A DNA stretch of 64,000 nt, from contig CAZZBW010000001.1 of the NCBI GenBank assembly GCA_964653045.1, positions 617-64,616 on the forward strand. Reading direction: 5' to 3'. The DNA comes from an uncultured Pseudomonadales bacterium (lineage in GTDB: Bacteria; Patescibacteriota; Microgenomatia; UBA1400; PJMF01). Position 1 is the first letter of the stretch. Each line of letters starts with the position of its first letter. A model generated the notes under the pieces. That model worked only from the letters and a program-made list of their open reading frames with translations. It did not search any database and was not told the DNA's origin. The position numbers and the translations under genes were made by a program. Below are positions 5,537 through 63,637 of this stretch, one piece after another.

Positions 5537-6007
5537 ATGAAGAATATGTCGCGCGCTCGCCTGGGTTTCAGCATGATTGAGATGATGATTATCATGGCTT
5601 TGATCGGCATTCTGTCTGTCAGCATCGGTTGGCAGGTGACCAGGCAGCTAGGTCGCGCTCGCGACAGCGAGCGCAAAGATGACCTGGCCAGGATCAAGCT
5701 AGCGTTTGAGGATTACTATAATGATCATGATGAGTATCCACCAGACGATACTATTTTAACTAATTGTGGTGGTGCCCAATTAATGCCATATCTTCCAGTG
5801 ATTCCTTGTGATCCGAGCACCCACGACCCTTATCTCTACGAGCCCGATCTAGCAACTGGCGGTTATCGTGTTTACGCTATCTTGGAGAACCCTGCTGAGA
5901 AATCTGTCACAGATCTGAATTGCGGTGGCTCACAGGGATGTAATGTAACTGGTCACTCTGAGTATAATTATGGTGTGGCAGTGGGTGTGCCTGTCAGGAT
6001 GCCTTAG
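5537..6007 (+). CDS. Type IV pilin/pseudopilin-like protein with class III prepilin signal
   Basis: N-terminal RARLG|FSMIEMMIIMALIGIL matches the prepilin peptidase site (G/F, Glu at +5). Hydrophobic alpha1 helix. C-terminal cysteines (NCGG...PCDPS...NCGGSQGC). Confidence 0.7.
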   Translation: MKNMSRARLGFSMIEMMIIMALIGILSVSIGWQVTRQLGRARDSERKDDLARIKLAFEDYYNDHDEYPPDDTILTNCGGAQLMPYLPVIPCDPSTHDPYLYEPDLATGGYRVYAILENPAEKSVTDLNCGGSQGCNVTGHSEYNYGVAVGVPVRMP

Positions 6008-6045
6008 TGAGAAATAACAAGTTAAAAACTATCGATAAGGAGCAT

Positions 6046-6513
6046 ATGCGCAATTTTTCTCCAGCCAAACGGGGTTTCACCATGATCGAGATTTTGGTGG
6101 TGGTTACCATCATTGGAATTCTAATTACATTGGGAATTCGTTCGTACAACGCTACTCAAATCAAAGCTCGAGACGTTAGGCGCAAAGCGGATTTGCACAA
6201 TATAGCCAAACCCCTCGAAGCATACTTCAATGATTATGGTGTGTATCCGATAGGAGCGGGCGTGATTACCATCGGTGTTAACACAATAGATTGGGGCGAA
6301 GCATTTGTTGACGGCAATGGAACAGTCTATATGTCACAGCTTCCTGAAGACCCCAGGGGTGACAGAAATTATTGGTATGAATCTAATGGCACTGAGTGGG
6401 CAATTTCGGCGCTGCTTGAGAATGAGAATGATCCCGATAGAGCGGGACCATTTCTTGGTACAACTTGTATAGTGGCTGATGACTGTAATTATCAAGTAAC
6501 TAGTACCAACTAA
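6046..6513 (+). CDS. Type IV pilin-like protein
   Basis: KRG|FTMIEILVVVTIIGIL prepilin motif. ATG at 6046 is preceded by AAGGAG at about -7. The ORF track begins at GTG 6007 and overlaps the upstream stop. C-terminal CxxxxC pair. Confidence 0.7.
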   Translation: MRNFSPAKRGFTMIEILVVVTIIGILITLGIRSYNATQIKARDVRRKADLHNIAKPLEAYFNDYGVYPIGAGVITIGVNTIDWGEAFVDGNGTVYMSQLPEDPRGDRNYWYESNGTEWAISALLENENDPDRAGPFLGTTCIVADDCNYQVTSTN

Positions 6514-6525
6514 ATAGATAAAAAT

Positions 6526-6990
6526 ATGTTCAAACTACCCTCCAGTAAATCAGGTTTTACCCTCATCGAGCTCTTAATCGTGATTGTGATTATTGCCTTG
6601 TTATTGGGAATTCTATTACCCAATATGCTGGGGATGAGAGAGAGGGCGAGGGATAGCGAGACAAAATCAGAGTTGAGAGAGCTCAAACTGGCGGTGGAGC
6701 TCTACGCTGACGAGTTTCAAGGGTATCCAGAAGGACATGCAAATAAAATGTATGGTTGTGGCACTACACCACCGGCGATCTGTAATGATGGTGATGTTTT
6801 CAGGCGAAATGGAATAGATTTTATGCAGGAAATGCCAGATGATTATAATTATGAGCAGCCAGACTCTACCAGTTTTTACATTTGGAAACTCTTAGAGAAT
6901 GAGTCCGATCAAGATATAGAAAGAAGTTGGGCAAAGTGTGGAATTACATCGTCGCCTGACCCGCAGGCTTATTTCGAATGCAGTTTTTAA
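6526..6990 (+). CDS. Type IV pilin-like protein
   Basis: KSG|FTLIELLIVIVIIALLLGIL prepilin motif. Conserved charged segment after the helix (RERARDSE, also present in the other two pilins). Four Cys in the C-terminal half. Confidence 0.7.
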   Translation: MFKLPSSKSGFTLIELLIVIVIIALLLGILLPNMLGMRERARDSETKSELRELKLAVELYADEFQGYPEGHANKMYGCGTTPPAICNDGDVFRRNGIDFMQEMPDDYNYEQPDSTSFYIWKLLENESDQDIERSWAKCGITSSPDPQAYFECSF

Positions 6991-54643: not shown

Positions 54644-54928
54644 ATGCAACCATTTTTTGTCAAAACATTTAGTAAAGGTCAAATGACGATCCCTAAGGTC
54701 ATACGCCAGAAATGGGGTGTGGGGGACGATTTTTGGATGAAAGTTAGATTTGATGAAAGTGGGGCATTAATTCTCATGCCCATTGAACACTCGCCTGATT
54801 CAGGGGGCATACTTGACCGCTTGTCAGCACTGCCCAAACCTCAAGAGTCGTGGTTTTCTCAGAAAGAGAATGAAAATATGAGAAACGAAGTCGAATTAGC
54901 GTTGAAGCGCAAGCTTAAAGATTGGTGA
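54644..54928 (+). CDS. vapB: AbrB/MazE/SpoVT-fold antitoxin (VapB-like)
   Basis: KGQMTIPKVIRQKWGVGDDFWMKV... swapped-hairpin motif. Stop is 1 nt before the PIN gene start. Confidence 0.6.
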   Translation: MQPFFVKTFSKGQMTIPKVIRQKWGVGDDFWMKVRFDESGALILMPIEHSPDSGGILDRLSALPKPQESWFSQKENENMRNEVELALKRKLKDW

Positions 54929-54929
54929 G

Positions 54930-55307
54930 ATGAATGTATTACTTGATACTTCAGTTATAGTTGATTGGTTGAGGCAAAAAGATAGTCGTGATACCTGGCT
55001 TTTCCAGTTACTAAAAGCTGACTGTCGGTTGTTTGTGCCTGTGGTGGTGGTGGCCGAGCTATATACTGGGTCGAGTGTCTGGCAGATTGCGGATGCAAGA
55101 TTGAGGCTCGAAGGTTTTTTGCGTGAGTGCCAGGTCATGAGTTTGGAGACAAATACCGCGGTTTTGGCGGGACAAATCAAAAACAAGTATAAGATCAACC
55201 TGATTGATGCGTTGGTAGCGGCTGAAGCAATGGAAAGATCACTAAAGCTAGCCACGCTCAACACGAAAGATTTTGCCAAAATCGAAGGATTGGATTTGGT
55301 GAAGTAG
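54930..55307 (+). CDS. vapC: PIN-domain ribonuclease toxin VapC
   Basis: MNVLLDTSVIVDW (Asp at position 6). ...LIDALVAAEAM..., ...ATLNTKDF acidic quartet positions. 125 aa. Confidence 0.75.
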   Translation: MNVLLDTSVIVDWLRQKDSRDTWLFQLLKADCRLFVPVVVVAELYTGSSVWQIADARLRLEGFLRECQVMSLETNTAVLAGQIKNKYKINLIDALVAAEAMERSLKLATLNTKDFAKIEGLDLVK

Positions 55308-55311
55308 CTCG

Positions 55312-55383
55312 TGCCCCCGACAGGAATCGAACCTGTACCAACGGTTCCGGAAACCGTAATTCTATCCGTTGAACTACGGGGGC
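55312..55383 (-). tRNA. tRNA-Arg (anticodon CCG)
   Basis: Manual fold of the reverse complement. Acceptor GCCCCCG/CGGGGGC, D stem GTTC/GAAT, anticodon stem ACGGT/ACCGT with loop TTCCGGA, T arm ACAGG-TTCGATT-CCTGT, discriminator A. CCA is not encoded. Confidence 0.85.
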
Positions 55384-55529: not shown

Positions 55530-58500
55530 ATGAAAAAGAGTCACTTGCCCACTAGCCTGATTAATCGAGTAATTACTTGGTTAGCTGTTTCTCTGGTGAT
55601 TGCAAGTATTGCTTTGGGGCAGGTAACAAATAGTGTAGTTTGGGCAGCTTCAGAATCGCAGACCAAGAGTGCGAGTGTAGTCAGCACGAATCCAGTGAAT
55701 GATGAAGCTGCCCCACAAGAAATCAGCGTTGAGCCAGTCGAAGTGGAAGTCAAAGCTCAGCCTTCGGCTTGGCAGAGATTATTGAAGTCAACCGGGATTC
55801 GTGCCAATTACCAGGGAATTAAGGCCGAGATCAGGAATAGTGAAGGCGAAAAAGTGGAGGATGTGGTGTCTGATGACTCCAACTCTGCCGATCAGTTTTT
55901 GTTTCATTTGGATCCAGCCAAACTAGAACTGGCTCCAGGCGAATATCAATTGGTTGTAGAGTACGCCGGCGAGGTGATTTATCAAGATTTTACTTACGGC
56001 GTGCTGGCGGTGAACGCCACCAAAGATGTGTACACATTGGGAGAGGCGGCCAGCCTGGAGCTGGCCGCCCTAGACAGTCACGGTACCACGCTGTGCAACG
56101 CCAACTTACTCCTCACCATTACTACTCCCGATGGGGGACAAACCAATCCAGAAGTGGTTAAATCTGGTGAGTGTGACGGAAATAATGTGACTGACGTGCC
56201 GGATTATTCGGCAGAATATGTACCTGAGCTTGAGGGCGAGTATCGCCTCAAGCTCCAAAACCTCGATCAAAATTTTGTGATCGAATCAAGTTTCCAAGTC
56301 GTAGCGGATCCTGAGTTAAGTATCGAGAGGTTGGGCCCGAGCAGAATATATCCAATGGCTAATTACTTGATGAATATCAATGTGTACTCAAAAAATGGCT
56401 TTAGTGGAACGGTGAGTGAAAGTGTGCCCAGCTCGTTTGCTATCGAAAGCGATGGTGCGTCAAAAAGCCAGCAGGGTGAACTGACGATTATCTCTTGGCC
56501 GGTTGAGATTGCTCCAGGAGAAACTGCGGAGCTGGCGTATCTTTTTGACGCACCGGACGTCTCTCCCCAATTTTATTCTCTTGGCTCGATTCAGTTATTA
56601 GATAACAAAAACCCAATTTATACCGAATCTCGCCAGTGGCAAGTTGCCTCAGATGATACTTCCACCAAGGCAATCGGCTCCGAGTCTGGCACCAACTGGT
56701 CAGCCTCAGGTGGCTGTACCTTCGGCACCAACTGCGTGACTACTTCTAACAATCAGTACGCTACTTTTAATGGCACTGGTCGGAATACTTTGTACCTTAA
56801 AAACATTGGTTTTTCAATTCCTGCGGGATCGACAATTGATGGCATTGTGATTGGATTCGAGGGATACGGGTCAGGCACTACTGCCGCAAGAAGAACCATA
56901 AGGTTGAATGTAACAAAAAATGGTACCAATGCAACTGATGCCACTTGGAATACCCAAGCTTTTACGACTCGAGATGCTAGTTATACCACAGGGACTAGCA
57001 CTGATCTTTGGGGCACGACTTGGACAGTCAGTGAAATTAATTCGACCAACTTTGGGGTAATGATTTCAGATAATGATACTACTGCCCGCGCTTTATACAT
57101 TGATCATGTTCAGATTACGGTGTACTACACACCACCAGTGACAATTAATGTGTCTGGTTCAACCAATGTCGCTAGTGGGACAGTTAAATGGGCGAAAAAT
57201 GGAGTGGCACAGGCTGAAACAGCTACGATCGGTTCTGGGACGTGGTCACTAACTGCTACTGGTTTAGCCCAAAACGATATCGTCACTACTTGGATTGATG
57301 CGGCAGCTGAGACCGATGAGAGTACCGCGATCACCAAGTATGACGGCACTGGTGATATCACTGGCATGGTGCTCAATGCCAATGTTCTGTCTGTAGGTAG
57401 TGTCGATAATCCTAGTCTGGTACTATCAAATTTCGCCTACACCAATACCAATAATGAAAATGTGATGCACAGCTACGGTAGTAGTACGCTGACGGTCGAT
57501 GGGGGTAATTCTTACTCAACAGAAAAACTTGACGTGCTGAGTGGAGCTACGCTGACGGTGGGTATCAGCGAGATAGTCAATACTCATCATCTGTCCATCA
57601 ACGGCACGCTGACTTCTGGTGGCAGTAGTACTTACAATGTTTATGGTAATTGGGAGAACAACGCGACTTTCACTGCCTCGACCAGCACGGTAGATTTCAA
57701 GCTTGCCTCAGGGACGCAGACGCTCAAGAGCGGTGGGACTGGGGCAGGCAAGTTGTTTAATAATCTGACACACTCTGGTGCCGGCACGCTCCAGCTGAAT
57801 ACCAATGCCATTGACGTTGATGGTAACTTTGCTCAAACCGCCGGCACCTTCGACGCCAATAGTTTCAGCCAGAACTTTGCTGGGGATTTTTCTTTGTCGA
57901 GTGGAACCGTGTTTACCAAAGGTGGAACCACCACGTTTGACGGTTCGGTAGCTAAAGCTATCACTGATAACACCACTGGTCAGCAAGATCTGGGTGCGGT
58001 GGTGATTGATGGGACGAGTAAAAGTATTTCTTCTTCAACAAATATCAAGCTGACCACTTTGTCGATCGGAGCGGATGATACGTTGGATATTTCTTCTGAT
58101 ACTTTGGCTATTTTGGGAAGCGGTACGCCGTTTACCAAAACGGGTGCGTTTACCACTACTGGTTCGACCGTGGTATATGCTGGGACTACGGCTACCAACG
58201 TTACCACCACGGCTTACAACAATCTGACGTTCACTCCCGCTTCAGGCACGCCGACATACACTTTACAAGCCAGTTTGACCGCCGGCAATGCGATTGCGGG
58301 CAACTTAACAATCAGTAGTGGTGCAACTTTAAGCACTTCAGCTTCAAACTTCAATCTAGAAGTTAAGGGCAATTGGGCGAATGCCGGCAGTTTTACTTCA
58401 GGTACCAACACCGTGACTTTTTCGGCAACCGCTACTGGCAAAACGATCGTGACCGGTGGGACCGGTACTGGTCAGGATTTTAATCATGTAGTGTTTAACA

Positions 58501-61500
58501 GTTCTTCCGGAGGATGGACAATCCAGACTAATGATATGAAAGTGGCTGGTAATTTGACCATTACCGATGTCAATGATTGGACGCTGCAAACGGGGAGGAT
58601 TCTTGAGGTAAATGGCCAGTACACCATTACTGGCAATGAAACGGCCGCTACCACTTGGACTGGTTCGACGCTTTATCTTAATAACGGCACTAGCACTAGT
58701 TACACTATTAACTCGATTAAAACTGCCTCAGCTGAGACCTATGGCACGTTGCAAATCGGTGCTAACACTGATGTACGGATGTGGAACTCAACCGCCACGA
58801 CCTTTACTGTGGATGCGACTGGTTCTTTATACTCGCAAAATCATGCCAATACGGCTGGTAGCCTGTATATTTGGGGTGATTACAACGTGGTGGGCACAGA
58901 TTACTGGAGTTACGCGACTGATTTTGACAGTGTGGCGTTGGGAGGATCTTCCCGCCAGGCAAATGTCAGAATTGATCCAGCTGGTGGAGTGACCGTGGGC
59001 AGTGGTAAAACACTAAATGCCATTGGCACATCGAGTTTTCGCACCACAGTGGATCGGCAGGGCGCCAGCAATGGTTACGGGCTAACCATTGCTGGCGGCA
59101 CAATTAACTTCAATTACGTCAACTTTGACCGGCTAGACGGTAACAAGGGTTTGGATATTCAAACAGGTTCAACCGTCACCAGTCTCGATTATACCAAGTA
59201 CGACAACTTGGTTGGAACGGCTGGTACCGATGATGCGTTTATTACTTTGAGTACTTCAATTGTTGGCACTGGCACTAAAATTTTGACCGGTTTACAGTTT
59301 GATAATACTGGGACTGGGGCAGAGTTCAATGTCAATTTGAGCGGAACGGCGGTCACCGGTTACTGGGATTTTGAGTCCAGCTCTGGGACATTCGATGGCG
59401 AGAGCTATGATGGCGCCAGCGGCATGGCCGAGGCCGATCCAGGCACACTGCGTTGGGATGACTCGGCCCAGCCGCCGCTGGCGCCCACCGACCTTTTAGC
59501 CGAGGGAGCGACCAACCCAACCGGCGTGATCGATCTGACTCCAGAGATGTCGGCGATTTATCGCGATAACAACGTTGGTGATACTGCTAATAAGTACCAG
59601 ATCCAAGTCGACGACAACTCAGATTTCACCTCAGTCTTTTGGGACTCTGGCGCGAGTGGTACCTCCATGACCAACTGTACAGTCAACAACCGCTGTCAAG
59701 ATATCTCATACACTGGTTCAGTGTTAACAAGAGGAATAACGTATTACTGGCGAATTAAGTATTGGGATATTGCAGGATTGGAGGGCGATTTTTCTTCAGA
59801 GTCAGCCACTTTCAAGCTCAATCAATTACCTAACACGCCGACCAACACTGCGCCAACTGATGGATTGGGCAATCAATCTTTGACTCCGACACTCCAGTCT
59901 TCAGCTTTCTCTGACTCAGATGTGGGTGATACCCACTCCGCCTCCCAGTGGCAGGTATCGACTGCTAGTGGGGCAGGATTTGATGCTGGCATTGTTTGGG
60001 ATTCAGGCACAGACACGACCAACAAAACATCCCGAGTAGTTGGTACCACGCTTTCCACTGGTACAACTTACTATTGGCGAGTCAGGCACCAGGATGATAA
60101 AACCGAGTGGTCGAGTTACTCGACAATTACTAGTTTTACCACCTATTACCCACCCTCTGCTCCCACTGATTTATTGGCAGAGGGAGCGACTAATCCCACG
60201 GGAATCATTGATTTGACCCCAGAATTATCAGCCATCTATCGTGATTCCGACGCAGGTGATACTGCTAATAAGTACCAGATCCAAGTCGATGATAATTCAG
60301 ATTTTACCTCGGTCTTTTGGGATTCTGGTGCGAGTGGTACTTCCATGACCAACTGTACCGTCAATAATCGTTGTCAAGATATTTCATACTCAGGATCAGC
60401 TCTTACCAGAGGCACAACTTATTACTGGAGAATTAAATTCTGGGATGTGGGTGGGGCAGAGGGGGCATTCTCTTCCGTCACAGCTACTTTCAAGATTAAT
60501 CAAATACCTAATACTCCAACTAACACTTCTCCAACGAATGGGGCAGGTAATCAATCACTGACTCCGACACTCCAGTCTTCAGCTTTCTCTGACTCAGATG
60601 TAGGAGATACCCATGCTGCTTCTCAATGGCAGGTATCTACCGCCACTGGGGCTGGCTTTGATGCCGGCATCGTTTGGGATTCGGGCACAGACACGACCAA
60701 CAAAACATCCCGAGTGGTTGGCACCACGCTCTCTACTGGTACTATTTACTATTGGCGGGTTAGACACCAAGATAACCGAACTGAGTGGTCGAGTTACTCA
60801 ACTATTACTAGTTTTACCACTAGCTATCCACCCAACACCCCGACTAATACCTCGCCAACCAATGGTGCGATCAACCAATCACTCACTCCAACGCTCCAGT
60901 CTTCTGCATTTTCCGATCCTGATGCTGGGGCGACTCATGCCGCTTCTCAATGGCAGGTATCTACCGCCAGTGGGGCTGGATTTGATGCCGCGATTGTTTG
61001 GGATTCAGGTACGGACACGACCAACAAAACATCTAGGGTAGTTGGTACCACGCTCAATCCCGGAGTGACGTATTATTGGAGAGTTCGCCATCGGGATGAT
61101 CGGAGTGTTTGGTCCAGCTACTCTGTTATTACCAGCTTTACAACTTATTATGCTCCCTCTGCTCCCACGGACCTCTTAGCCGAGGGAGCAACTAACCCCA
61201 ACGGCTTAATTGATCTTACCCCTGAGTTATCTGCGATCTATCGTGACTCAGATGCGGGTGATACCGCCAATAAATATAGAATCCAAGTGGATGATAACTC
61301 AGATTTCTCTTCAGTGTTCTGGGACACAGGAGTCAGTGGTACATCTATGACCAACTGTACCGTCAATACTCGTTGTCAAGATATTTCATACTCAGGATCA
61401 GCTTTAACTAGAGGTACAGTGTATTACTGGCGAATTAAATTCTGGGATGTGGGTGGGGCAGAGGGAGTATTCTCCAGTGAATCGGCTACTTTCAAACTCA

Positions 61501-62279
61501 ATCAATTGCCAAATACTCCAACCAACACTTCACCAACTAATGGCGGTACAGAGCAAAGCCAAAATCCGACTTTGCAATCATCGGCTTTTTCCGATTCCGA
61601 CGTTGGGGACACGCACTCCAACTCCCAGTGGCAGGTATCTACCGCCACTGGAGCTGGATTCGATGCAGCCATTGTCTGGGATTCGGGGGTCACCGCCACC
61701 AACAAGACCTCTGTGGTAGTCAACAGTACCAACGGTACTTTCCAGGGTAGTTTAAGTGGGCAAACACAACTAGCCTTAAACAGCACTTACTATTGGCGGG
61801 TTAGACACCAGGATGATAAAACCGAGTGGTCCAGCTACTCAACTATTACCAGTTTCACCACCATTGTGTCTAACCCGCCTACAGCTCCCACTATTCCTTG
61901 GTGTGAGGGCCAAACCAATCCAACTAATGTAACTAGCGCCACTCCGAGCTTTTCTGCCATACACAACGATCCTGACGGTGATGCAGCAAATTTTTATCAA
62001 ATTGAGGTAAATACTAACTCAAGCTTCAGTGGGACAGTGATGTGGAATTCTACCAAAACTTCTATGAGCAATCTCGCTTCTGGCGTGCGCTCTGCCGATT
62101 TTGTTTATGCTGGTTCTGGTTTGCAGTTAAGTACCACTTACTATTGGCGCATCCGATTTTGGGATGTGAACGGCTATGAAGGTGCAGTCTCCGCCACCCA
62201 ACAATTCACAACGGCGAGCTTCGTCAGCGGCAACTTCTTTTTTGAGGGTTTGCAAATGGAAGGTTTAAATATCAACTAG
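55530..62279 (+). CDS. Large (2249 aa) secreted adhesin-like protein: signal peptide, beta-helix-like T/G-rich region, then 9 alternating FN3-like modules
   Basis: N-terminal signal/TM (ITWLAVSLVIASIALG). Two module types alternate. A: PSAPTDLLAEGATNPTG.IDLTPE...YYWRIK.WD. B: PNTPTNTSPTNG..QSLTPTLQSSAFSD.D.GDTH.ASQWQVST...YYWRVRHQD. The W/YYW pattern is typical of fibronectin-III-like folds. Confidence 0.8.
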   Translation: MKKSHLPTSLINRVITWLAVSLVIASIALGQVTNSVVWAASESQTKSASVVSTNPVNDEAAPQEISVEPVEVEVKAQPSAWQRLLKSTGIRANYQGIKAEIRNSEGEKVEDVVSDDSNSADQFLFHLDPAKLELAPGEYQLVVEYAGEVIYQDFTYGVLAVNATKDVYTLGEAASLELAALDSHGTTLCNANLLLTITTPDGGQTNPEVVKSGECDGNNVTDVPDYSAEYVPELEGEYRLKLQNLDQNFVIESSFQVVADPELSIERLGPSRIYPMANYLMNINVYSKNGFSGTVSESVPSSFAIESDGASKSQQGELTIISWPVEIAPGETAELAYLFDAPDVSPQFYSLGSIQLLDNKNPIYTESRQWQVASDDTSTKAIGSESGTNWSASGGCTFGTNCVTTSNNQYATFNGTGRNTLYLKNIGFSIPAGSTIDGIVIGFEGYGSGTTAARRTIRLNVTKNGTNATDATWNTQAFTTRDASYTTGTSTDLWGTTWTVSEINSTNFGVMISDNDTTARALYIDHVQITVYYTPPVTINVSGSTNVASGTVKWAKNGVAQAETATIGSGTWSLTATGLAQNDIVTTWIDAAAETDESTAITKYDGTGDITGMVLNANVLSVGSVDNPSLVLSNFAYTNTNNENVMHSYGSSTLTVDGGNSYSTEKLDVLSGATLTVGISEIVNTHHLSINGTLTSGGSSTYNVYGNWENNATFTASTSTVDFKLASGTQTLKSGGTGAGKLFNNLTHSGAGTLQLNTNAIDVDGNFAQTAGTFDANSFSQNFAGDFSLSSGTVFTKGGTTTFDGSVAKAITDNTTGQQDLGAVVIDGTSKSISSSTNIKLTTLSIGADDTLDISSDTLAILGSGTPFTKTGAFTTTGSTVVYAGTTATNVTTTAYNNLTFTPASGTPTYTLQASLTAGNAIAGNLTISSGATLSTSASNFNLEVKGNWANAGSFTSGTNTVTFSATATGKTIVTGGTGTGQDFNHVVFNSSSGGWTIQTNDMKVAGNLTITDVNDWTLQTGRILEVNGQYTITGNETAATTWTGSTLYLNNGTSTSYTINSIKTASAETYGTLQIGANTDVRMWNSTATTFTVDATGSLYSQNHANTAGSLYIWGDYNVVGTDYWSYATDFDSVALGGSSRQANVRIDPAGGVTVGSGKTLNAIGTSSFRTTVDRQGASNGYGLTIAGGTINFNYVNFDRLDGNKGLDIQTGSTVTSLDYTKYDNLVGTAGTDDAFITLSTSIVGTGTKILTGLQFDNTGTGAEFNVNLSGTAVTGYWDFESSSGTFDGESYDGASGMAEADPGTLRWDDSAQPPLAPTDLLAEGATNPTGVIDLTPEMSAIYRDNNVGDTANKYQIQVDDNSDFTSVFWDSGASGTSMTNCTVNNRCQDISYTGSVLTRGITYYWRIKYWDIAGLEGDFSSESATFKLNQLPNTPTNTAPTDGLGNQSLTPTLQSSAFSDSDVGDTHSASQWQVSTASGAGFDAGIVWDSGTDTTNKTSRVVGTTLSTGTTYYWRVRHQDDKTEWSSYSTITSFTTYYPPSAPTDLLAEGATNPTGIIDLTPELSAIYRDSDAGDTANKYQIQVDDNSDFTSVFWDSGASGTSMTNCTVNNRCQDISYSGSALTRGTTYYWRIKFWDVGGAEGAFSSVTATFKINQIPNTPTNTSPTNGAGNQSLTPTLQSSAFSDSDVGDTHAASQWQVSTATGAGFDAGIVWDSGTDTTNKTSRVVGTTLSTGTIYYWRVRHQDNRTEWSSYSTITSFTTSYPPNTPTNTSPTNGAINQSLTPTLQSSAFSDPDAGATHAASQWQVSTASGAGFDAAIVWDSGTDTTNKTSRVVGTTLNPGVTYYWRVRHRDDRSVWSSYSVITSFTTYYAPSAPTDLLAEGATNPNGLIDLTPELSAIYRDSDAGDTANKYRIQVDDNSDFSSVFWDTGVSGTSMTNCTVNTRCQDISYSGSALTRGTVYYWRIKFWDVGGAEGVFSSESATFKLNQLPNTPTNTSPTNGGTEQSQNPTLQSSAFSDSDVGDTHSNSQWQVSTATGAGFDAAIVWDSGVTATNKTSVVVNSTNGTFQGSLSGQTQLALNSTYYWRVRHQDDKTEWSSYSTITSFTTIVSNPPTAPTIPWCEGQTNPTNVTSATPSFSAIHNDPDGDAANFYQIEVNTNSSFSGTVMWNSTKTSMSNLASGVRSADFVYAGSGLQLSTTYYWRIRFWDVNGYEGAVSATQQFTTASFVSGNFFFEGLQMEGLNIN

Positions 62280-62342: not shown

Positions 62343-63332
62343 ATGAAAACAACTACTAGATCTGATATTCTGACTTTCATCAAAAAACGAGGTCAAGTTT
62401 CTCCCCATCAGTTGAAACAACACTTAGGCCTAGGTGGTCCAGCTATTCACCGGCAACTAAGAAAATTGGAGGCTGAGCTCTCAATTGTTAAGATTGGCAA
62501 AGCACCGAAAGTAGTATATGTGGCGCGTGAGGGTAGTCGAGTTATGCCAGCCATATCCACTTTGCCACCTGAGTTGGCAGAGGTGATCGAGGCGAGATAC
62601 ACTTTCGTTAATCCCGATGGAGTGATGCTAGAGGGAGTGGAGGGATTTGTCCATTGGGTGCAGAAAACTGGTCAATCTGCGAATCTAACAGCCTTGGCAC
62701 AAGAGTTTGTTAAAGTTCGCCAAGAAGCTGACAGTTGGTACCAAGGTAAATCTTGGATTGATGCGACTACTAAACTTAGTCAGACATTCCCTAATACTTT
62801 GATTGATCAAGTGGCCTACGCCGATTTTTATGCATTGCCCAAGTTTGGTAAAACCAAGTTGGGTGCCTATACGCTTCACGCCAAGGTTTCCCAGAATCAG
62901 TCATTAATGGTGAAAATCGCAACTCAAGTTAGTCCGATCATTCAGGAACTGATTGCTGGTTGGAAAATTCAAGCGGTGGCCTACATTCCGCACTCTATTC
63001 CCAGAATATTGCCACTTTTACCGGTTATCAAGCAAGAGCTGGCGCTCGCCTTGCCTTTGATTAAAGTAGAAAAATTATACGCAGGAGATATTAGAGTGGC
63101 ACAAAAAAGTTTGTCTAAGTTGAGTGATCGAGTGGAGAATGCCAGGCGCACAATGTTTGTCACGAGTGAGATACCTTGGAAGCGAGTGTTACTAATTGAT
63201 GACGCGGTGGGATCGGGAGCAACGCTTAATGAAGTGGCGGTCAAACTTAAGAGCGAAAAACAAGTTGAGTTTGTCGGTGGATTTGCGATAGTGGGGAGTT
63301 ACAAAGGATTCGAAGTGATTAATGAAGTGTAA
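62343..63332 (+). CDS. Winged-HTH plus phosphoribosyltransferase(PRTase)-type domain protein (PurR/ComF-like fold)
   Basis: N-terminal DeoR-like wHTH (DILTFIKKRGQVSPHQLKQHLGLGGPAIHRQLRKLE). C-terminal PRPP-binding-like motif VLLIDDAVGSGATLNEVAV. Confidence 0.6.
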   Translation: MKTTTRSDILTFIKKRGQVSPHQLKQHLGLGGPAIHRQLRKLEAELSIVKIGKAPKVVYVAREGSRVMPAISTLPPELAEVIEARYTFVNPDGVMLEGVEGFVHWVQKTGQSANLTALAQEFVKVRQEADSWYQGKSWIDATTKLSQTFPNTLIDQVAYADFYALPKFGKTKLGAYTLHAKVSQNQSLMVKIATQVSPIIQELIAGWKIQAVAYIPHSIPRILPLLPVIKQELALALPLIKVEKLYAGDIRVAQKSLSKLSDRVENARRTMFVTSEIPWKRVLLIDDAVGSGATLNEVAVKLKSEKQVEFVGGFAIVGSYKGFEVINEV

Positions 63333-63351: not shown

Positions 63352-63396
63352 CCCGCTTAGCGGGGTAAACTTCTCGTCTTGGGTTCGTGCACTTTG

Positions 63397-63468
63397 TGCC
63401 CTCACCAGGACTCGAACCTGGATCGGAGGTTTAGGAAACCTCTGTTCTATCCCTTGAACTATGAGAGC
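63397..63468 (-). tRNA. tRNA-Arg (anticodon CCT)
   Basis: Manual fold. Acceptor GCTCTCA/TGAGGGC (one G-U pair), D stem GTTC/GAAC, anticodon stem GAGGT/ACCTC with loop TTCCTAA, T arm CCAGG-TTCGAGT-CCTGG, discriminator A. Confidence 0.85.
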
Positions 63469-63474
63469 GAGGGA

Positions 63475-63496
63475 GCTCTGTCGGGGTGGCTGGACT
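63475..63496. repeat. 22-nt direct repeat of the 3' end of tRNA-Pro(CGG) (gctctgtcggggtggctggact); second copy is within the tRNA at 63558-63579
   Basis: Exact 22/22 match including 6 nt of 3' trailer. The copy lies 6 nt upstream of the 5' end of tRNA-Arg(CCT). The intervening 62 nt contain the hairpin TCCCGAT-[gaagcttaagcgaa]-ATCGGGA. Confidence 0.8.
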
Positions 63497-63563
63497 TCCC
63501 GATTTCGCTTAAGCTTCATCGGGATAAACTTCTCGCCAGCCAACTCGACTTCACTTCGCTCTG

Positions 63564-63637
63564 TCGGGGTGGCTGGACTCGAACCAGTGACCTCGTCGTC
63601 CCGAACGACGCACTCTAGCCATCTGAGCTACACCCCG
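63564..63637 (-). tRNA. tRNA-Pro (anticodon CGG)
   Basis: Manual fold. Acceptor CGGGGTG/CACCCCG with the C1-G72 pair typical of bacterial tRNA-Pro. D stem GCTC/GAGT, anticodon stem CGTCG/CGACG with loop TTCGGGA, T loop TTCGAGT (one A-C mismatch in the T stem), discriminator A. Confidence 0.8.

Follow-up and report, generated by a model that had tools for sequence, protein, structure and literature searches.

What kind of protein is a 2249-amino-acid (aa) product whose C-terminal third is built of repeated fibronectin type III (FN3)-like modules, alike in protein yet diverged at synonymous sites, and how did such an array arise? The gene in question lies in a stretch of 64 000 nucleotides (nt), hereafter the window, taken from contig CAZZBW010000001.1 (assembly GCA_964653045.1, positions 617–64 616, forward strand). 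It is a complete open reading frame (ORF) with an ATG start and a stop codon, its extent and length being exactly those given in an earlier note on this DNA (the original prediction). A look-up of the exact protein in the public gene index returned no entry. We propose, with a probability of roughly 0.6, that the product is a Sec-exported, adhesin-like cell-surface fibre of a Woesebacteria-like bacterium from the candidate phyla radiation (CPR), which would contact a host cell or a polysaccharide.

55530..62279, + strand: complete ORF, 2249 aa plus stop codon

Eight old modules under purifying selection

The modules span window positions 59475–62228 and number eight, as counted from stretches matching Pfam family PF25788 together with motif anchoring; they belong to two types, A and B, in the order A1-B1-A2-B2-B3-A3-B4-A4'. 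Nine had been predicted, a number borne out neither by PF25788 nor by a sensitive scan with a hidden Markov model made from the modules themselves, which shows eight and nothing else above noise. Both quoted consensus strings are present in the protein, and the proposed order (A-B-A-B-B-A-B-B?) is right for the first seven types; the eighth belongs to type A, though divergent, with 47–54% protein identity to A1–A3 and 33–39% to the B modules, so that the series reads A-B-A-B-B-A-B-A'. The modules and the tail that follows them are as follows.

59475..59828, + strand: module A1 (aa 1316–1433), Ig_Rha78A_N type, with a CX5C loop
59829..60152, + strand: module B1 (aa 1434–1541)
60153..60506, + strand: module A2 (aa 1542–1659)
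60507..60830, + strand: module B2 (aa 1660–1767)
60831..61154, + strand: module B3 (aa 1768–1875)
61155..61508, + strand: module A3 (aa 1876–1993); the contig of the ortholog starts within it
61509..61877, + strand: module B4 (aa 1994–2116), with a 15-aa insertion
61878..62228, + strand: module A4' (aa 2117–2233), divergent A type
62229..62276, + strand: conserved C-terminal tail GNFFFEGLQMEGLNIN (aa 2234–2249), reaching the C-terminus

The family to which all eight belong is Ig_Rha78A_N (PF25788), the FN3-like N-domain of GH78 rhamnosidases; it matches the protein with 229.7 bits (E 4.8e-69; gathering score 27.4 bits) in eight stretches. When a di-module query was compared with PDB sequences, the N-domain of the alpha-rhamnosidase 6i60 was returned (E 2e-4), along with a weak match to the human FN3 domain 1x4x (E 0.2). 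The Pfam scan and the 6i60 match thus agree with the expectation of FN3/Ig-like modules, though not of the classical fn3 kind (PF00041), for which the scan gave no match at E<=1. Besides the family match, the modules share with the GH78 N-domain (6i60 residues 31–136) the signature YYWR(V/I)(R/K)xWD; unlike the rhamnosidases, the window protein has no catalytic domain and carries a tandem array of two subtypes, each with a conserved acidic DxDxGD(T)(H) loop for which the enzyme domain has no counterpart. It is not itself a GH78 alpha-L-rhamnosidase: the NCBIfam model NF041572 reaches 99.2 bits where the cut-off is 1800, over model positions 31–135 only, and the Pfam scan of the protein found no other rhamnosidase domain. 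A separate CX5C loop (NCTVNNRC), probably a small disulfide loop, occurs in each of A1–A3 (window positions 59673–59695, 60351–60373 and 61353–61375; aa 1383/1389, 1609/1615 and 1943/1949); it is missing from A4' and from every B module, and is present in some homologues (P0037, P0038).

Modules of the same type are 73–92% identical in protein and 66–83% identical in DNA, A and B types sharing 30–40% of their residues; self-blastn aligned module copies at 70.7–80.6%, and Tandem Repeats Finder (TRF) reported no tandem repeat in the DNA of the array (0 rows). The earlier figure of about 85% for DNA therefore lies above the observed range, and that of more than 90% for protein is correct for the pair B1–B2 only. 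The contrast itself, conserved protein over diverged synonymous sites, is stronger than had been claimed. In same-type pairs the proportion of synonymous differences (pS) is 0.52–0.77, random sequence giving about 0.75, the non-synonymous divergence (dN) is 0.05–0.24, and its ratio to the synonymous divergence (dN/dS) is 0.03–0.07 where dS can be estimated. That the synonymous sites are near saturation while the protein is still 73–92% identical reflects purifying selection, which has held each module since an old duplication.

The age of the array is further documented by a partial ortholog (locus L001), found by a scan of GTDB genomes on contig DAOOPX010000003.1 of a Candidatus Woesebacteria metagenome-assembled genome (MAG). 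It covers the last 364 codons, over which it is 92.8% identical to the window gene in DNA and 97% in protein (dS 0.30, dN 0.021, dN/dS 0.07), with the end of its contig lying 28 nt inside module A3 (window position 61183). Within these bounds it keeps the order A3-B4-A4', including the 15-aa insertion of B4, and the tail. As this sole ortholog is limited by its contig end, the comparison of module number between strains extends to the last three modules, which are the same. The youngest duplication (B1/B2, dS 0.89) predates the split between the window and L001 lineages (dS 0.30). Because pS is near saturation, dN/dS is low and the ortholog keeps the A3-B4-A4 order, the eight modules are old intragenic duplications, each under strong purifying selection since, as the original prediction had it.

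Two other accounts of the array were weighed. The first is that it is an artefact of assembly, with a wrong number of modules or a chimeric order; the window DNA probably comes from a metagenome assembly, and the contig of the Woesebacteria MAG breaks inside A3. We regard this as very improbable. Mis-assembly is unlikely because the longest exact runs between modules are only 18–43 nt, and the DNA identity, at most 83%, is nowhere near the level at which short-read assemblies collapse; moreover, the reading frame is intact over all junctions, and the sequence A3-B4-A4-tail recurs in an independent MAG at 92.8% DNA identity.

The second account is that codons have been scrambled actively, under selection to suppress recombination between repeats, rather than diverging with age. 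The values of pS in several same-type pairs (0.74–0.77) are near random expectation, and TRF sees no repeat in the DNA, as scrambling would have it. Every same-type pair, however, uses the same codon at identical residues more often than expected (0.40–0.61 versus 0.35–0.39) and matches at four-fold sites more often than expected (0.32–0.57 versus 0.27), and some pairs retain identical runs of 35–43 nt. Codon use that is above, not below, expectation leads us to reject active scrambling, to which we give next to no credence; what is left between the modules is a residual, decaying signal of common descent, not codon avoidance.

Domain order and the proposed surface fibre

The N-terminal half of the protein contributes the following features to the proposed fibre.

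55530..55649, + strand: N-terminal signal peptide or signal anchor, with basic residues, hydrophobic VITWLAVSLVIASIALG, then VWA|AS (sequence, Kyte–Doolittle scan)
55818..56720, + strand: three beta-sandwich domains (aa ~97–397), the middle one MG2-like (blastp, AlphaFold, Foldseek, Pfam)
56727..57137, + strand: all-beta, jelly-roll-like domain of ~135 aa (aa ~400–536; blastp, model)
57147..59474, + strand: Ig-like beta-sandwich (aa ~540–622), then a T/S/G-rich right-handed parallel beta-helix

The sole hydrophobic segment of the protein lies at aa ~14–32, the best 19-aa Kyte–Doolittle windows all falling at aa 9–19, and it fits the earlier description of the protein as secreted. The protein also contains pairs of cysteines of a kind typical for extracellular domains, which we count towards export. 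Sortase anchoring depends on a C-terminal LPXTG-like motif that precedes a hydrophobic stretch and a basic tail (PMC4617865); neither an LPXTG-like motif nor a C-terminal hydrophobic segment was found in the protein, which rules out a sortase-anchored surface protein.

The beta-sandwich triad has an invariant cysteine pair (Cys189/Cys215) and ends in the motif RQWQ(V/I)ASD; it is common to at least 24 other giant CPR-type proteins, at 31–44% identity and often at internal positions. Its AlphaFold model, built with the family alignment, shows three confident beta-sandwich domains, with a predicted local distance difference test score (pLDDT) mostly of 80–97. Foldseek comparison of the N-terminal model with the PDB returned strings of MG domains from complement and alpha-2-macroglobulin (E ~3e-6, with a template modelling (TM) score of only ~0.17) and nothing beyond generic MG and Ig strings. 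Pfam MG2 matches 12 of the 18 members of the triad family (best E 1.7e-8), recognizing only the middle domain and that weakly, and in the window protein itself its score is below threshold (18.7–19.7 bits versus 32.8). The likeness to alpha-2-macroglobulin and complement therefore amounts to a string of MG-type domains; the window protein has no thioester, CUB or bait region, and membership of the alpha-2-macroglobulin family is ruled out by the sub-threshold MG2 score and by a Pfam scan in which no A2M or TED domain was found.

Large proteins of MshQ-like, cytochrome-rich and BNR-containing types share the jelly-roll-like domain that follows, at 30–43% identity, blastp matches at this level being seen in P0025, P0034, P0035 and P0015; in none of them does a Pfam family cover it, and the confidence of its model is just 50–70. 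Over aa 540–1315 the model reaches pLDDT >90 for 335 residues and has regular strands of 3–5 residues, the beta-helix being confident to about aa 1010 and of low confidence from ~1040 to 1315. The predicted beta-solenoid is structurally similar to known right-handed parallel beta-helices of the pectate-lyase-like kind, and the threonine-, serine- and glycine-rich composition noted earlier for this half of the protein is evident (T 17.6%, G 12.8% and S 11.2% over aa 620–1300). Beta-helical adhesins and toxins with which it was compared include the binding region of the Lactobacillus reuteri SRRP (5nxk), VacA p55 (2qv3), the passenger of the SPATE Pet (4om9) and the tapirins (6n2c); sequence identity to these is 7–11%, and the window protein differs from them in its flanking domains and in having neither an autotransporter beta-barrel nor serine-rich repeats. 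A type V autotransporter is ruled out, there being no Pfam match to a beta-barrel and the C-terminus being made up of FN3-like modules and the 16-aa tail.

Taken from the N-terminus, the proposed fibre would thus consist of a signal or anchor helix, three MG2/Ig-like sandwiches, a jelly-roll-like domain, an Ig-like domain, a long beta-helix, the eight modules and the tail. Because its copies are 66–83% identical in DNA and share no exact run longer than 43 nt, the array would lend itself poorly to homologous recombination and would form an extension of fixed rather than variable length. In this it differs from the Periscope and other repeat-stalk proteins (SasG, the SHIRT repeats of Sgo_0707), which it resembles as a large exported protein with tandem small beta-rich domains and a would-be elongated rod; their repeats are near-identical in DNA, which permits length variation (PMC8201768), whereas the window array keeps its order in the ortholog and the protein has no LPXTG motif. 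We do not place it among Periscope proteins, whose highly identical DNA repeats have no counterpart here (66–83% identity, 0 TRF rows, longest exact run 43 nt). As a general rule neighbouring domains usually share less than 50% identity, which keeps misfolding in check (PMC8201768, PMC4660218), and six of the seven junctions in the array join unlike modules (30–39% identity), an arrangement that would fit this rule by reducing inter-domain misfolding. The tight constraint on each module suggests that surfaces such as the DxDxGD(T) loop matter and that the modules may be more than passive spacers.

This last point bears on a different view of the protein, in which the eight modules are ligand-binding units, a multivalent lectin-like or Ca2+-dependent array instead of a stalk, and the beta-helix is the shaft. 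Such an array is consistent with a dN/dS of 0.03–0.07 in every module, with an acidic loop that is shared by the A and B types and has no equivalent in the rhamnosidase N-domain, with the ~55–60% identity of B-type modules across phyla, and with the distal position that the modules would take if the N-terminus holds the protein. The part played by the loop is, however, read from sequence alone, and domains that are purely structural also show low dN/dS; on balance we think this view unlikely, while giving it some weight.

Several observations weigh against the surface fibre as we propose it. Polysaccharide lyases and hydrolases are among the proteins that the beta-helix resembles, and the protein might then be a secreted polysaccharide-degrading enzyme whose beta-helix acts as a lyase or hydrolase on a host wall or capsule, with the modules as accessories in the manner of glycoside hydrolases and cellulosomal proteins. 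We consider this rather improbable: an enzymatic beta-helix finds no sequence support in Pfam, in NCBIfam or in a PDB sequence search with aa 81–1315, which returned no match. The beta-sandwich (Ig/FN3-like) fold of the modules is one that we infer from sequence matches, for example that to the N-domain of 6i60. The rule of unlike neighbours is not strictly kept, the sole same-type junction, B2/B3, joining modules that are 84% identical, and alternation of A and B cannot be claimed as a significant pattern, six hetero junctions of seven arising from four A and four B modules with P = 8/70 = 0.11. Finally, the similarity groupings, (A2,A3),A1 for the A type and (B1,B2),B3,B4 for the B type, give trees that disagree, A2/A3 being closest in one and B1/B2 in the other. 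On account of this conflict we reject a history of plain A-B unit duplication alone, and three module pairs have identical runs of 28–43 nt, longer than codon permutations give (P 0.008–0.02); because of both, more than A-B unit duplication has shaped the array, possibly short gene-conversion tracts or local constraint.

The repeat array, a textbook case of old duplications under purifying selection, adds little on its own. The protein as a whole would provide a clean annotated example of CPR surface-fibre architecture, and proteins of this kind are prime candidates for mediating the attachment of ultra-small episymbionts to their hosts. The tail and the widely shared, unannotated triad offer handles for defining the class and for asking how such a protein is held without the usual anchoring signals.

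The C-terminal tail and related proteins

Across relatives the tail has the consensus G-x-F-x-F-E-G-L-K-L-E-G-I-K-I-N-COOH, also written FxFEGLxMEGLxIN-COOH, and the domain before it is of the A-type Rha78A_N kind in some proteins and a classical FN3 in others. It stands at the C-termini of L004 (a 2340-aa ORF), L005 (a 2157-aa ORF), L010, P0037–P0070 and P0163–P0300; of the best 150 representatives 146 were newly returned, and 45 of these end in the tail. In the fetched proteins 19 of 24 matches to the tail motif lie within seven residues of the C-terminus, the other five being in membrane helices; shuffled sequences gave about 5.75 matches anywhere. All named carriers are Patescibacteria/CPR (Patescibacteria, WS6 (Dojkabacteria), Woesebacteria), and 11 of the 13 tail-bearing proteins checked have a single hydrophobic segment at the N-terminus and none elsewhere, the remaining two appearing N-terminally incomplete. 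Many homologues that terminate in a B module, one of them annotated as Chloroflexota, end instead in a membrane helix and a basic tail.

No model in the Pfam and NCBIfam scans, which covered known C-terminal sorting models, matched the tail, and a 45-aa tail alignment returned nothing from a set of 5.8 billion proteins, the query being too short. Because different kinds of last domain precede it, the tail may be an autonomous signal, and we tentatively suggest, as a possibility that we hold well below even odds, that the window protein belongs to a large CPR surface class defined by this strictly C-terminal element. The tail could serve the unusual CPR cell envelope as a sorting or attachment signal of a new type, or it could act as a donor beta-strand or hairpin through which the fibre docks to a partner protein or to a second copy of itself. 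If this were true, the eight-module array would be a spacer that presents or positions the terminal tail. A further motif, W-Y-x-S-S-W-x-Y-R-(R/K), directly follows the N-terminal hydrophobic segment in many tail-bearing or related CPR proteins (P0164, P0177, P0180, P0182, P0206, P0223, P0262 and L003) and is not found in the window protein.

To size the module family, we searched 1.84 billion cluster representatives with a profile made from the last module. The family has 10 105 representatives at E<=0.001, of which 651 reach E<=1e-30, with arrays of up to 21 modules. Among the best hits are 27 proteins with 5–21 modules, whose within-array identity is 0.43–0.95 and in which non-adjacent modules are often more alike than neighbours. 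In a smaller, word-based search most fragments were A-only or B-only arrays, and the full-length CPR protein L004 carries an A-B pair. More remote relatives than L001 belong to Moranbacteria, Dojkabacteria, Parcubacteria, Nealsonbacteria and Nomurabacteria, from which we conclude that the organism is itself a Woesebacteria-like member of the Patescibacteria; B-type modules are about 55–60% identical across phyla. The closest full-length relative, P0001, is 37% identical over aa 85–1035 and has a single module. As the family is large, arrays are common and this closest relative is single-module, the window protein is a lineage-specific expansion in a well-populated family, of which it is an ordinary member.

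Its nearest counterparts are giant CPR/Patescibacteria surface proteins rich in LamG, Ig and beta-helix domains (P0001, P0012 of Dojkabacteria, L002 of Moranbacteria, L004 and L005), with which it has in common the MG2-like triad (31–44% identity), beta-helix segments (27–61%), C-terminal Rha78A_N modules and, often, the same tail. P0001 carries one module and a number of the rest two or three (L003–L006, L008), whereas the window protein has eight, of two alternating subtypes, and is without LamG. The literature on CPR giant proteins and on sorting signals supplied general context only and nothing on this family.

Genomic setting

The neighbours of the fibre gene form the housekeeping set of a small genome, encoding LeuRS, ComEA, ComEC, ArgRS, an M16 peptidase, NDK and a PIN toxin pair. 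The last of these, a PIN-domain toxin gene with a small antitoxin-like ORF upstream of it (window positions 54644–55307), lies directly upstream of the fibre gene, and a tRNA-Arg(CCG) gene on the minus strand (55311–55383) stands between the two. Downstream are a 329-aa ORF (62343–63332), with weak matches to MarR_2 and to phosphoribosyltransferases, and then tRNA-Arg(CCT) and tRNA-Pro(CGG) at 63396–63637. The 329-aa ORF is missing from the otherwise collinear L001 locus, where the giant gene almost abuts the tRNA region; its presence or absence amounts to an indel of ~1 kb between close relatives.

Two adjoining giant genes elsewhere in the window, with products of 3870 aa and 5860 aa, and three small genes beside them occupy 7060–36256 (minus strand) and 5537–6990 (plus strand). 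The fibre gene had been contrasted with the 5860-aa gene on the grounds that the repeats of the latter were near-perfect; by self-blastn this is so for one pair of its internal DNA repeats (98.7% over 377 nt) and not for the others (72–94%). The 3870-aa product has nine LamG/Laminin_G_3 stretches, and the products of the three small genes have type IV pilin-like N-termini (GFSMIE, GFTMIE and GFTLIE).

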